64,000 nucleotides of DNA from Candidatus Heimdallarchaeota archaeon (lineage in GTDB: Archaea; Asgardarchaeota; Heimdallarchaeia; Heimdallarchaeales; Heimdallarchaeaceae), in contig JAUVXV010000001.1 in the NCBI GenBank assembly GCA_030603365.1, positions 192,001-256,000 on the forward strand, in the 5' to 3' direction. The notes below the pieces were generated by a model. That model was given only the letters and a program-made list of their open reading frames with translations. It was not told the DNA's origin and ran no database searches. The first letter of the stretch is position 1. Every line of letters begins with the position of its first letter. The position numbers and the translations under genes were made by a program. Below, piece after piece: positions 52,057 to 62,780 of this stretch.

Positions 52057-52140
52057 GGTGTAGGAAGGAATATTGAAATTAGTCCGTCCAACGTCTTGCA
52101 AAAAGAATCTCAAGAAACCTTCCGCACCAATATTCCTTCT
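52057..52140. ncRNA. Candidate structured RNA with two mutually exclusive helices
   Basis: GGTGT-A-GGAAGG pairs CCTTCC-GCACC; alternatively GAAGGAATATTG pairs CAATATTCCTTC; inner TCTTG/CAAGA hairpin; TATA-like boxes on both sides. Confidence 0.45.
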
Positions 52141-52279: not shown

Positions 52280-52459
52280 ATGGAAGAAATAAAGAGAGAA
52301 GATTTACTTCGACAATTAAAAGAAAAAGCCGACCCTCAAGTCCTCATTAATGATGATGCAGTTGATTTTGTTCTATGGAAGTTAAATGAAATAAAACAAG
52401 AAATAGGGTTGCGATTAAAGAGCAGAGAGGAAAGAACTCCTCTGAAGGATAGTGCCTGA
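52280..52459 (+). CDS. 59-aa small protein, possible truncated histone fold (not in ORF track)
   Basis: MEEIKREDLLRQLKEKADPQVLINDDAVDFVLWKLNEIKQEIGLRLKSREERTPLKDSA; AGGTGA RBS and TTATAT box upstream. Confidence 0.7.
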   Translation: MEEIKREDLLRQLKEKADPQVLINDDAVDFVLWKLNEIKQEIGLRLKSREERTPLKDSA

Positions 52460-55395: not shown

Positions 55396-55537
55396 TGGTA
55401 GCGCCGACTAGACTTGAACTAGTGATCTTCGGGTTTCAGAGTCCAAAATCCACGAATTCTGAACTTATGAGCCCGACGGGTTTTCCATGCTTAGGGATTA
55501 TGAGGAAGATCATCCGCATAATTTACCCCACGGCGCT
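55396..55537 (-). tRNA. Initiator tRNA-Met(CAT) with two introns (D-loop 14/15, 55491-55523; anticodon loop 37/38, about 55435-55465), CCA encoded
   Basis: Acceptor AGCGCCG/CGGCGCT with A1:U72, D stem GGGT/ACCC, anticodon stem TCGGG/CCCGA with three G:C pairs, loop CTCATAA, T arm ACTAG-TTCAAGT-CTAGT, ACCA end; 78 nt after removing 33+31 nt. Confidence 0.92.
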
Positions 55538-55686: not shown

Positions 55687-57294
55687 TTATAGTTTTCTCA
55701 GACGTTTTCGTAGATTTGTACTTATACTACTTAAGCCTAGAAATGCGAACAACGTTATTAGTATCGTAATAGATGATCCTTCAGTGTTTTCACCAGTAGT
55801 TTCAGTTATTGTCACACATTCATAATCATAGACAAATGGGTAAGGATCAGTATTGTTGTCTTTTCCGTCTATTTGATACTCTCCTATTCCTTCATGATCG
55901 TTCCAATAATTCCCTTCATCTGTTGCGCTTTCATACCATCTATTGTTGTACCCCTCATCATATGCCTGAGAATAACCATGCTCTGTACCATCTCTGTTGT
56001 TGCAGATGAAGTAATTATGATGAATTTTATTCCAAGTTGACACTTCATAAATATAAATGCCATAGTCAATATTTCTAGTTAGTACATTGTATGAGATTGT
56101 CGAAAAATCTGTTTCTCTTATAATAATTCCATTAATGTTGTTGTTACAGGTATTATTTGAAAGAATAATAGAATTCGCAATCCAAAGACGTATGCCTATA
56201 TCATTGTTATAACATAGATTAATACTTACAGAAGAGATACTTCTAAAAATATCAATTCCATAACTGTTATTAAACACCGAGTTACTCATTACATAGTTTG
56301 ACGTACTCAGAAGTACATCAATACCTGTTTGTATGTTATAACTACAAATGTTTTCAGTTATCATAGAATAGGAATCATCAGTAATATAAAGACCAGTAAA
56401 ACCGAAACTGCAGTTATTTTCTTTAACGGTCATTGTTCTAGAATGCTCAAGTTTAATACCATAATGACTCCTTAGACAAACATTGTTATGGATTACTATA
56501 GTATTAGAGTAAAATGCATAAATTCCATAATATGATTTATTACAGAGATTATTGGAAATGGAACTTGCACTCGAGCTTAGAAAACTTAATCCCCAAACGT
56601 TATTAACTAAAGTATTGTTATTTGCGTCTATTATACTAGAATACAATATATGAATGCCAGAATTGGAATTATTATAACAATAATTTTTGTATATTTGAAA
56701 ATTCATAGTTTCATACAATGCAATCCCAAAATCATTTTCATAACATTCATTATCCCCGATATATCCGTTATCAGAGAAATACACTACTATACCTGAAGCA
56801 CTTCCACCACATTTGTTATTTGATATATTAACATTATCTGTTGAGTAAACATAGATTCCATACCATTCTCTCCCATGACAAACATTATTGTTAATTTCAA
56901 TTGTATCTGAAGTTATATTACTTAGACTTATTGCGGATATTTGTGAAGTAATCACACAATTTTGAATTATGAAGTTTTTTGAGACATTGGTGATAAAAAT
57001 TCCGAATTCCAGATTTGTTTCAATAGTTATATATTGAATAAGATATGGATTTTGTATTGTTCCATTTCCAGAAAATCCATAGAAATCAAAATCTACATCA
57101 TCCATAATTATTATAGGTTCAGTGATGGAATTTTTAATTCTGTTTACGTTACCAAAAGTTTGGTATGGTTCTATTTTATAATTTAATGTCTCATTCGGTA
57201 AAATAATTGATTGATTCATACCAGTTGAAAATAGAATTGTAAAAGTAGAAATGATTAACCAGAAATTAATGAGATAATAGTACTTCTTTCTCAT
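55687..57294 (-). CDS. NosD/CASH parallel beta-helix surface protein
   Basis: Signal peptide, G-GT-QNPY-I, many N-I-NN-C--N--GI repeats, QAYDEG..N.W...GNYW, D-YP, C-terminal TM + basic tail. Confidence 0.88.
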   Translation of the reverse strand: MRKKYYYLINFWLIISTFTILFSTGMNQSIILPNETLNYKIEPYQTFGNVNRIKNSITEPIIIMDDVDFDFYGFSGNGTIQNPYLIQYITIETNLEFGIFITNVSKNFIIQNCVITSQISAISLSNITSDTIEINNNVCHGREWYGIYVYSTDNVNISNNKCGGSASGIVVYFSDNGYIGDNECYENDFGIALYETMNFQIYKNYCYNNSNSGIHILYSSIIDANNNTLVNNVWGLSFLSSSASSISNNLCNKSYYGIYAFYSNTIVIHNNVCLRSHYGIKLEHSRTMTVKENNCSFGFTGLYITDDSYSMITENICSYNIQTGIDVLLSTSNYVMSNSVFNNSYGIDIFRSISSVSINLCYNNDIGIRLWIANSIILSNNTCNNNINGIIIRETDFSTISYNVLTRNIDYGIYIYEVSTWNKIHHNYFICNNRDGTEHGYSQAYDEGYNNRWYESATDEGNYWNDHEGIGEYQIDGKDNNTDPYPFVYDYECVTITETTGENTEGSSITILITLFAFLGLSSISTNLRKRLRKL

Positions 57295-57372: not shown

Positions 57373-58417
57373 TTACAGCCAATCCGTTGAAAGTGTTTCT
57401 CGCATATTAGCAAATTGATACAAATCGTCAGGACCAATTACAGCAAGTGCATAGTCATAAGTTTCTTCTTTTGCATAATAGAAAGCATCGGTTTCATTAT
57501 AACCTAAGTGCAAACCCTCAAAGAAGAAGTGCGTAAATGCACCGCCCCAAGCTCCTTGGTCACCATCACTTTCATTATATCTCGTCCCATTTACTCCATA
57601 CCATCTTGCTGCTTGTGTAAAATTAGCAGCTGTCGCAGCAAAAAATGGGTCATTTTGATGTTCTGGTTTCTCAAATTCAAGTATGAAATCGCCACTATGA
57701 CATGCTTCAATTAAGAAGATAATGTCTGAAGCTTCTAATTCAGCTAATTTATCTATGAAATCCGCAGCTGTAAAATTAATGTTTTGATTCTCCATAGTTT
57801 GATAATAAAGATAGGAATGCCATTCCCTATTAGGAATAATACCCGTTAATCTATTATCACCATGTGTTATAACATATATGAAAACTAGAGAGAATGAACT
57901 TTCATATGTGTCAAGATCATCTATCGCATCTTCCCAATATGATGCGTTTTCATAGTATAAGACATCTGTAAAACTTTCATTGTAAATTAAATCATCTCTT
58001 AATTCGTCTATAACTGTTCTATTAGCAACATCGGATGCCCATAAAAAAAGAGCAGCTTTACCATAAAGTGTTAAATCTTCTTCATGTTCTGCATTTGTGA
58101 TGAGAACATATTTGCTAGTAAACTTATACCCATCTTTTTCTATGCTTATCGAGTAGAATTTGAGTTTAACTGTAGTCCAAGTGAACTCATAATATCCATT
58201 AGAATCCGTATAATCTGTCCTTTTTGCTGAACCATCTTCTAATAATTGTACTTTCACTCCACTTACTGCTTCAAGTGACCAATTTAAGTAAACTGTTCCA
58301 TTGAAGTCTACTGACCCATAATATAGAGCTGCTTCTGCGTGATTCAAGTTTCCATAAAATGTTGGTACTGCAACTTAATACCAACACTAGTATTACTATT
58401 TTAATGCTTTTTTTCAT
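57373..58417 (-). CDS. Secreted caspase-like (clan CD) cysteine peptidase with carboxypeptidase-regulatory-like domain; signal peptide separated by a 1-nt frameshift near 58375
   Basis: VFIYVITHG and LIEACHSGDF His/Cys dyad, GAFTHFF; TDSNGYYEF...K-GY N-domain. Upstream ATG 58417 gives MKKSIKIVILVLVL, joining VAVPTFYGNLNHAEA only after a frame change. Confidence 0.8.
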
Positions 58418-58423
58418 TATTTT

Positions 58424-58639
58424 TCTACCATCCATAGTAGGTAACTAGCAGACGATTTTTCACTATTTAAAACAAAAGAAAATTAACCGACAAAATAACT
58501 TCTATTTGTAACTTAAGGTAGATTGTAATACAGCACTTTTTCTATAATTCACCTTCTCTGAATTATGGAATACATTTTTTAATAACAGTTAGTTTTATAT
58601 CTTGATGAGTGGGATTGGAATTCTCTACCATCCATAGTA
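58424..58639. repeat. 16-bp direct repeat TCTACCATCCATAGTA at 58424-58439 and 58624-58639
   Basis: Exact copies 200 bp apart, read directly. Confidence 0.9.
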
Positions 58640-58662
58640 AGGGTTCTTATTCCCACCTCATC
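58604..58662 (+). ncRNA. Candidate antisense hairpin sRNA
   Basis: GATGAG-TGGGA/TCCCA-C-CTCATC and GGAATTCT/AGGGTTCT stems (G:U pairs only on + strand) enclosing the repeat; TTTTAATA at 58577-58584. Confidence 0.5.
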
Positions 58663-58743: not shown

Positions 58744-60087
58744 CTAGTTAGTTTGTATTTTGACTTTTATCCCTTTCTTAACTAAATTTTTAAAAAAGAT
58801 TCTCTCAAAAACCGGTTCTTCAATTACTCTTCCAAAATTAATGATTAACTTATCTTTGTAGCTTACCATAGCTGTTCCAACTTTATTCACTGGTACTTGT
58901 GCAGGAACGAATTCAAACTCTTCAATATATTTTTCCAGTTCCTCAGGAACCGTTACTTTTCCCAAGTTGGTTAGAACAGTCGAGTATTGAGTTGTACCTA
59001 TCCGAAAATATCCTTTTTGACCAAAAAACTTCTTTACCGCCAAAGGTGTCAAACGCAAGAACATCATGTTTTCATTTGATACGTTCTTGTGAATATAAGT
59101 CATGAAATACTTTGGATTAACTTCCTTCTTCATATAGTGGTGAACTTGCTTAACTATCTCCTCAAAAGAATAATAACCCAATCTGGGGTCGATTCCTGGA
59201 GTTACATAAAGAGAAAAATTTCTCATTGTTTGGGACGAATAAATATTTCGTAGGTTCACTGGAACCATTACTCGAATAGGCCGAATATATTTCCTCCTCA
59301 GTTTTTCTGGAAAATTAAAAACTAATTCATGCAATGATTCAATAAGTATTGCAGCTATATACTCTGTTAGACTTATTTTGAGTTCTTTTGCTTTTTCTAG
59401 TACTTGTTTAACTGATATTATTCCTTTAGTAATATGATATCTGCCAACTTTTATCCTTTTGAAAGGTAGACGGAATGCCTTAACATCTAATTTACGACTT
59501 GTGTTGATTTTCTTATCGAATCTCCTGTATGCATCCTCATATTCCTCTAGAGTTGGGGATTGATCTGGTCTGAATATATCCTTCCAGTCTTTAACTGTGA
59601 CTCCTTTGAGATTAAGATATTCTCCCAATAATGCTTTCAGGAAAGTTATGCCTCCTGTACCATCAGTTAAACAATGATGAAATTCAACAGCAATTCTTCT
59701 TTTGTAAACCTTCACGCGAAAAGGGAATACGCCTTTTTGTGTTATGGGCATGAATTCATTCGGATATTTCGTGTCCCTCATAATCTTCGGATATGACATA
59801 TTAGTTTCCCAAAAATGCCAAAAGAATCCTGTTTTCAGATTAACTCTAAAAAATGGGAAGCGAACTATTATCCGATTAAGAGCTTTCTGTAAAATAGTAA
59901 TATTAACTGGTTCTTTTAGGGTTACTGCTAATCGAAAAACTTGAGGTATTCTTGGAGAAGCAATTAAGCTGAATCCAGTGGCTGCATTTTCTAGTCGATG
60001 CCATTCCTTATCCCTCTCACTCATACCTATTTGTAAATTCTTCTTTGTAGCTAAGGATTGACTAGAGGATGTAGGATTTCCTGTCAC
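58744..60087 (-). CDS. Alcohol acetyltransferase/condensation-domain (HxxxDG) acyltransferase
   Basis: W-RLENAA, VFRL, RFPFF-V-LK-GFFW, FHHCLTDG, VPVNLR, LTNLG. Confidence 0.85.
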   Translation of the reverse strand: MTGNPTSSSQSLATKKNLQIGMSERDKEWHRLENAATGFSLIASPRIPQVFRLAVTLKEPVNITILQKALNRIIVRFPFFRVNLKTGFFWHFWETNMSYPKIMRDTKYPNEFMPITQKGVFPFRVKVYKRRIAVEFHHCLTDGTGGITFLKALLGEYLNLKGVTVKDWKDIFRPDQSPTLEEYEDAYRRFDKKINTSRKLDVKAFRLPFKRIKVGRYHITKGIISVKQVLEKAKELKISLTEYIAAILIESLHELVFNFPEKLRRKYIRPIRVMVPVNLRNIYSSQTMRNFSLYVTPGIDPRLGYYSFEEIVKQVHHYMKKEVNPKYFMTYIHKNVSNENMMFLRLTPLAVKKFFGQKGYFRIGTTQYSTVLTNLGKVTVPEELEKYIEEFEFVPAQVPVNKVGTAMVSYKDKLIINFGRVIEEPVFERIFFKNLVKKGIKVKIQTN

Positions 60088-62567: not shown

Positions 62568-62780
62568 TTAAAGGTCTCTTGCGGAAACTGTTTTTCTTCC
62601 ATTTGCTTTAGCTCTGTTAGCTGCTTTCTTAACTAGTACAGCTATTTTTTCGTCTAGAGCTTTAAGAAGATCTCCACCAACCTTATAATCGCCGAGTTCC
62701 TTGACATATTCTCTGATTTTTGATTGAACAATCATCATTTTACTCGCACTTCTGTCGGTTTTTGCCTGCCTTAAGGGCAT
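62568..62780 (-). CDS. Prokaryotic histone with short alpha3 (DUF1931-like/face-to-face type) and N-terminal extension
   Basis: IVQSKIREYVK...VGGD...LDEKI..LV.KA..RAKANGRKTVSARDL; TTTTTAATA box 25 nt upstream of ATG 62780. Confidence 0.88.
   Translation of the reverse strand: MPLRQAKTDRSASKMMIVQSKIREYVKELGDYKVGGDLLKALDEKIAVLVKKAANRAKANGRKTVSARDL

Follow-up and report, generated by a model that had tools for sequence, protein, structure and literature searches.

The closest described counterparts of the element reported here are found in bacteria and in archaea. E. coli possesses the divergent type I loci zorO-orzO/zorP-orzP, tisB-istR and shoB-ohsC (PMC2887945, PMC3919570). OrzO requires RNase III in order to function, and 15 continuous nucleotides of complementarity are enough (PMC3919570). 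According to PMC12390103, type I antitoxin-style control had been found in only three bacterial phyla before that paper's own case. Among the archaea, Methanosarcina mazei produces sRNA162, sRNA154 and sRNA41, each of which acts as an anti-RBS sRNA (PMC3510493, PMC5867862). For Asgard archaea, our literature search found no base-pairing regulatory sRNA described.

The locus considered here lies in an archaeon that the original prediction had taken for an Asgard, an assignment supported by its close relatives, which are named Ca. Heimdallarchaeota. The window, by which we mean the whole stretch of 64,000 nucleotides analysed, corresponds to C1:192001-256000 of a 3.65-Mb assembly of 33% GC and 89% completeness. 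A 16-mer is present at 58424-58439 and again at 58624-58639, a spacing of exactly 200 bp, and its first copy ends 6 nt upstream of the ATG at 58417, so that the coordinates confirm the arrangement first claimed. There is no further exact copy in the 3.65-Mb genome, the sole copies with one mismatch being the matching pair at a paralogous locus on contig C15, and when the intergenic region was shuffled 2000 times no 16-nt repeat arose. The first copy lies in the 5' leader of a protease gene (58424..58439, minus strand; -22 to -7) and forms the putative target. The second is the variable antisense word, or guide (58624..58639, plus strand), of a predicted 59-nt hairpin sRNA (58604..58662, plus strand). 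The original prediction had made this word the loop of the hairpin, presented single-stranded to the ribosome-binding region. The plus-strand hairpin is real and the word is an exact complement of its target, but only 8 of the 16 nt reside in the apical loop (58629-58636), which sits atop a 3-bp stem, and only about 48% of the match is unpaired within the hairpin. The proposed preference for the plus strand was upheld by folding, at -23.2 kcal/mol (z -3.7) against a weaker -18.3 (z -2.0) for the minus strand. A sequence about 20 nt upstream of the hairpin had likewise been pointed out, and a TATA box is present at 58575..58582 on the plus strand (-29 to -22); the purine-rich stretch immediately before it resembles a BRE. 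Given established archaeal promoter geometry, the sRNA would start at the first base of the stem, a G.

The protease gene has a TATA box of its own (58464..58471, minus strand), which aligns with TATA boxes in five orthologous promoters, and its spacing suggests that the mRNA starts near 58442, so that the target would occupy most of the 5' UTR. If the mRNA does start there, the mini-hairpin claimed for the leader is the predicted structure, with 6 bp formed over an SD-like GGAUGGU. The window leader and those of most of the closest orthologues form small complementary hairpins. The target contains an in-frame upstream ATG (58433-58435) that is missing from most orthologues. Pairing of the leader with the anti-SD, taken from a class relative, this assembly having yielded no 16S 3' end, amounts to -7.6 kcal/mol. 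The net binding predicted for the window sRNA is -4.2 kcal/mol with its cognate leader and about 0 with non-cognate ones, and the leader of its own gene ranks first, by a small margin, among some 3,360 start regions.

The gene so targeted encodes a secreted protease of clan CD, the caspase fold (57373..58417, minus strand). That assignment of fold was borne out, but the ATG at 58417, taken originally as the protease start, opens a frame which ends at codon 49. The body of the protease resumes in another frame (57373-58347), and comparison with two paralogues indicates a net loss of 2 nt near 58366-58375; the frameshift marks either a genuine pseudogene or a mistake in the assembly. A signal-like N-terminus is followed by an Ig/CarboxypepD-like domain. 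In the family alignment H189-G190 and C241 are invariant, the corresponding window codons being at 57864 (His) and 57702 (Cys), whilst the match to Pfam Peptidase_C13 is weak and below cut-off. An AlphaFold model of an intact paralogue (pLDDT 66) gave its top query TM-scores among the matches listed (about 0.33) with the MALT1 caspase domain and SAVED-CHAT. By alignment and model, the gene product is a clan CD peptidase of the caspase-haemoglobinase fold with a His-Gly and Cys dyad. The family is small, with 5 proteins. Its distant relatives in other families do not have the hairpin, and an adjacent hairpin was absent from homologues outside the genus and from three inside it. Here and at most orthologous loci a gene for a NosD/right-handed beta-helix protein with hydrophobic ends (55687..57294, minus strand) lies 3' of the protease gene, with which it is probably co-transcribed. 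An intron-interrupted tRNA-like gene with a CAT anticodon, recognized by eye (window ~55398-55537, minus strand) and missed by the Rfam gathering search, adjoins the 3' end of the cassette. Elsewhere in the window there is a small archaeal histone-like ORF of 70 aa (62568-62780, by eye) and a further hairpin (52064-52139) with a 12-bp closing stem of different sequence and a C-rich interior. The latter is situated upstream of a 59-codon ORF (52280-52459), and no clear target was found for it.

The scope of the system proved wider than had been envisaged: the window element belongs to a genus-wide class which also serves subtilases and other genes. The module recurs on C15 with a protein 40% identical to that of the window and a hairpin 95% identical (56 of 59 positions), and its two 16-mers have one substitution in common. 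Among relatives, the same closing stem surrounds different words, each complementary to the leader at its own locus. Loop and leader, whose co-variation had been proposed as a check on the antisense reading, do co-vary across paralogues and relatives. In total 23 hairpins of 52-72 nt, with two types of closing stem, were curated in this Heimdallarchaeia genus, the set being partly picked for having a match. The genes lying divergent to them encode clan CD proteases, subtilases and other products. Every hairpin has a distinct word of 9-16 nt that is antisense to the leader or start codon of the gene beside it; about 15 guide words can be distinguished, each fitting its own neighbour. The second stem type, GGAGCTAG...CTAGCTCC, is used by the orthologous protease in genome G001, and a search for it returned 21 hits in 9 genomes of the genus. 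In these unselected pattern hits, the guide matched the adjacent divergent gene in 18 (two of which were established through contig ends), a distal gene in 1 and no gene in 2. Their neighbours comprise two further clan CD subfamilies, subtilases, a 202-aa secreted protein and cytoplasmic unknowns.

Both covariance models match only this genus among 83 class genomes searched, one of them (R2) recovering 5 copies. The held-out hits comprised 2 with matched neighbours (one through a word with three differences, all G·U-compatible), 3 without an adjacent target and 1 at a contig edge. Generalised to GRAGCTAGY, the second stem type is present in 25/25 genomes of the genus, at 1-7 copies each, compared with 3/375 other Asgards. 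The GATGAG stem of the window has no sequence in common with it, and orthologous proteases are paired with either of these two unrelated stems. Because they agree in size and promoter geometry and can stand in for one another on orthologous proteases, we infer that the two stem types form one class. Neither the window hairpin nor its relatives had a match in Rfam and no paper describing the module was found, in line with the original view that it is undescribed. An exact-repeat scan of the genome recovered two modules. A generic genome-wide scan of leaders against upstream hairpins with wobble scoring gave 8 against 7 and 9 in permutations, which is no excess, and RNAalifold on seven GATGAG-stem sequences gave invariant terminal pairs only, with no two-sided changes.

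Many hairpins of the GRAGCTAGY type are stand-alone RNAs with a GAAGCTAG stem; these have a TATA box to themselves, interiors that resemble an anti-SD and no target next to them. Examples of G(A/G)AGCTAG-stem RNAs of this kind are G000 C14:124881-124958, C1:362730-362817, C14:114741-114792 and C14:57326-57382 (L163, L083). Genus-wide they have TATA at -28 and mostly C-rich interiors, and several are syntenic across genomes. These RNAs are probably trans-acting members of the class, although target prediction in trans was not discriminating and singled out none. Larger RNAs of about 120 nt share this stem type, contain a pyrimidine-rich word in duplicate and are positioned 3' of subtilase cassettes (G000 C1 ~698100-698220, C7 ~2750 and C9 ~127400). 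Other hairpins of 53-64 nt have 12-13-bp closing stems of different sequence (G000 C4:134242, C7:89163 and C11:66902), the last two being paralogous. At L082:3027-4900 (G000 C1:340026-341900) a GGAGCTAG hairpin is antisense to a leader some 80 nt upstream of a 40-aa Cys-containing ORF; the locus, a possible RiPP cluster, also has a frameshifted radical-SAM-like gene and is followed by a truncated protease paralogue of 100 aa at C1:342920.

The predicted pairing is specific within the curated set. Across the 23 modules the cognate duplex averages -28.9 kcal/mol versus -13.4 for non-cognate combinations, figures which are descriptive of the set and not a test, since the modules are related and partly selected. 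The cognate neighbour is the best partner in 20 of the 23, the exceptions favouring a close paralogue. Once the cost of opening structure is deducted, net binding is -6.2 kcal/mol for cognate pairs versus -0.1 for non-cognate pairs. The net values are modest, as at the window, and fall to 0 in one module, about half of the guide being paired inside the hairpin. All aligned targets are located within -28 to +15 of the start codon (which is unverified at one locus) and none is on the TATA box. Promoter signatures are equally consistent: every one of the 23 hairpins has a TATA box at -29 to -22, in which position -28 is T and positions -28 to -24 are exclusively A/T; T occupies -1 in 17 of the 23, before G at +1, and a purine-rich stretch precedes the TATA box. 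A strand-blind search for the stem gave 62 hits, and in 37 of them this TATA flanked just one side, against a background of 2.4% per site. On the strand so defined, the non-Watson-Crick pairs of the stem number 21 G·U versus 2 A·C (7 versus 0 in positions 1-8), which points to a plus-strand RNA independently of the promoter position. Between guides and leaders, substitutions have a weak bias towards wobble, with C>T at 10/114 versus G>A at 0/44 (p=0.06, the changes not being independent), and A>G substitutions have none. Complementarity, its co-variation, its position over the SD or start codon, and the promoter and strand signatures can thus all be demonstrated in the DNA itself.

The reading that we favour, and consider probable, is that the hairpins are self-promoted antisense sRNAs which block translation initiation, perhaps with the help of host RNase III. 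The conserved promoter geometry suggests that an sRNA of about 59 nt would be made from its own archaeal promoter, facing away from the protease operon. The closing stem would join the two ends of the RNA, leaving the apical loop and adjoining arm to pair with the short leader of the protease mRNA. Pairing would probably begin loop to loop and then spread over the SD/start region, so that translation initiation of the first gene would be blocked, after which host RNase III may cleave the duplex. With different guide words the same layout would operate on several unrelated, mostly secreted, accessory genes, providing a portable means of switching off genes whose over-expression is costly or harmful. 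RNase III with a dsRBD is encoded in this genome and in 21/25 genomes of the genus. It was rejected as a specific partner, being present in 229/400 Asgard genomes. The host enzyme is encoded at C11:129034-129843, and the protein at L214:1201-2010 (G000 C11) is a bacterial-type RNase III with dsRBD, from a family of patchy, lineage-wise distribution. LSm proteins are also encoded in this genome, and L090:1291-1776 specifies a third LSm-domain protein of 161 aa with a C-terminal extension.

It is hardly credible that the hairpin acts in cis, as part of a long minus-strand leader or as the terminator of the upstream gene. That gene (58744-60087) does point at the hairpin on the minus strand, and some family members fold equally well on that strand. 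Yet a same-sense copy is unable to pair with the leader (duplex -14 versus -30), the TATA box of the protease gene is located downstream of the hairpin, and upstream neighbours vary in identity and orientation across loci. In genome G007, moreover, a hairpin lies past the 3' end of the operon, 2.2 kb away from the start of the protease gene, and that start is nevertheless its best pairing. Such a placement is compatible with a diffusible RNA and rules out both a 5' UTR element and a local duplication, the two readings against which the antisense proposal had been set. Somewhat less remote, though still very improbable, is the idea that the direct repeats act as DNA, either as an irreversible switch, recombination between the two copies removing both promoters, or as a duplication made on insertion. 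The stretch separating the two repeat copies has indeed been lost at two loci (G020:C30 and this genome's C9:125963), fusing the 3' half of the hairpin to the gene start, but both products are broken genes. The repeat copies are often imperfect or gapped, the hairpin arms flank the repeat and remain paired, one hairpin lies beyond the far side of its target gene, and neither the fixed TATA spacing nor the G·U strand bias would be explained. A target-site duplication was also rejected. The cassettes are found at different genomic sites and several target genes are broken. The L087 cassette sits at the 3' end of tRNA-Phe, and at the same site in G023 the hairpin alone is left, flanked on both sides by the tRNA 3' end. 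There (L081:3870-4270, G023:C28) the tRNA-Phe has a T-arm intron, a second copy of its 3' end follows about 290 bp downstream with the orphan hairpin in between, and the orphan guide is 1-2 nt off the leader of that genome's C170 protease gene. In a viral collection there were no relatives of the protease, and pattern matches occurred at chance level only.

A more serious competitor, albeit an unlikely one, is that the RNA serves as a guide on a dedicated host protein which reads the closing stem, giving programmable silencing of the matching mRNA or gene. The GRAGCTAGY sequence itself, beyond its pairing, is kept around unrelated interiors in 25/25 genomes, and the many stand-alone copies, which have TATA boxes of their own and a C-rich interior resembling an anti-SD, would suit such a system. 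Against it, either of two unrelated stems serves orthologous proteases, Piwi is absent from this genome and present in 1/25 of the genus, Cas6, Cas7/DevR and a CRISPR array were not found, and the loci share no flanking motif or adjacent effector gene and have bulges in their matches. Taken to its full extent, this proposal would give the genus a programmable RNA silencing of its own, with a fixed protein-read stem, a swappable guide and a host factor (RNase III, LSm or other), without Argonaute or Cas, serving both core regulation and the restraint of acquired secreted effectors. We give this combination, as a whole, little credence. Under the preferred reading of self-promoted antisense sRNAs, the RNAs most likely silence neighbouring genes, the complementary part being altered for each gene, and the sequence comparisons point to a real and previously undescribed class of re-targetable antisense sRNAs in Heimdallarchaeia.

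Heimdallarchaeia are commonly placed near the root of the eukaryotes. The class supplies co-varying RNA-target pairs in Heimdallarchaeia hosts that encode RNase III, and these pairs may bear on RNA-directed silencing before the coupling of Dicer and Argonaute. It also marks the secreted proteases, with their tight control, as candidates for antagonistic effectors, and it suggests a compact repressor that might be re-targeted in archaeal genetics. One may speculate that the proteases are antagonistic effectors and the downstream protein confers immunity, with the sRNA damping the first cistron only.

A number of parallels and differences can be drawn with known RNAs. Membership of the box C/D family was rejected, as the 5' UGAUGA of the window RNA is fully paired with its 3' CUCAUC, it has no CUGA and there is no Rfam match; H/ACA was rejected likewise, with no ACA tail after the stem. 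A miRNA occupies one stem arm of its hairpin, whereas the guide here spans the loop. The imperfect 50-90-nt antisense hairpins and an Asgard host with an RNase III-dsRBD do recall pre-miRNAs and HrAgo1 with its neighbouring RNase III (10.1101/2023.12.14.571608), but a miRNA-like Argonaute pathway was rejected on the distribution of Piwi. CreA of CreTA (PMC8501985, PMC9458426) is likewise a small archaeal RNA which has a variable guide between conserved flanks and represses its neighbour. Its flanks are CRISPR repeats and it guides Cascade to shut down transcription, in contrast to the SD/start targets here. A CreA- or CRISPR-like RNA was rejected: the hairpin lacks CRISPR-repeat flanks, and neither an array nor Cas6 or Cas7/DevR, the two Cas families searched, turned up in this 89%-complete genome. 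With the E. coli type I loci the element shares a divergent, non-overlapping sRNA, 15-20 nt of complementarity to the 5' UTR in the E. coli cases, and, as in zorO-orzO, a variable region which distinguishes duplicated loci; with its dependence on RNase III as well, zorO-orzO is the nearest parallel under the favoured reading. By computational prediction it has the separate sRNA gene and extended 5' UTR complementarity that define type I antitoxins. Membership as defined was rejected, the partner being a secreted caspase-fold protease of about 350 aa, and elsewhere subtilases. Unlike E. coli, the host and promoters are archaeal, the targets are mostly secreted enzymes of 200-520 aa instead of small hydrophobic toxins, the leaders are short so that the SD/start is covered directly, and one scaffold serves unrelated gene families. 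With its own predicted promoter and an SD/start pairing kept by co-variation, the window element would rank among base-pairing anti-RBS sRNAs. It thus resembles the M. mazei sRNAs, which are archaeal and mask the RBS, sRNA154 by means of a loop. Those are single metabolic regulators, whilst the hairpins described here form a multi-copy class in which guides are swapped within a common closing stem and directed at accessory genes.
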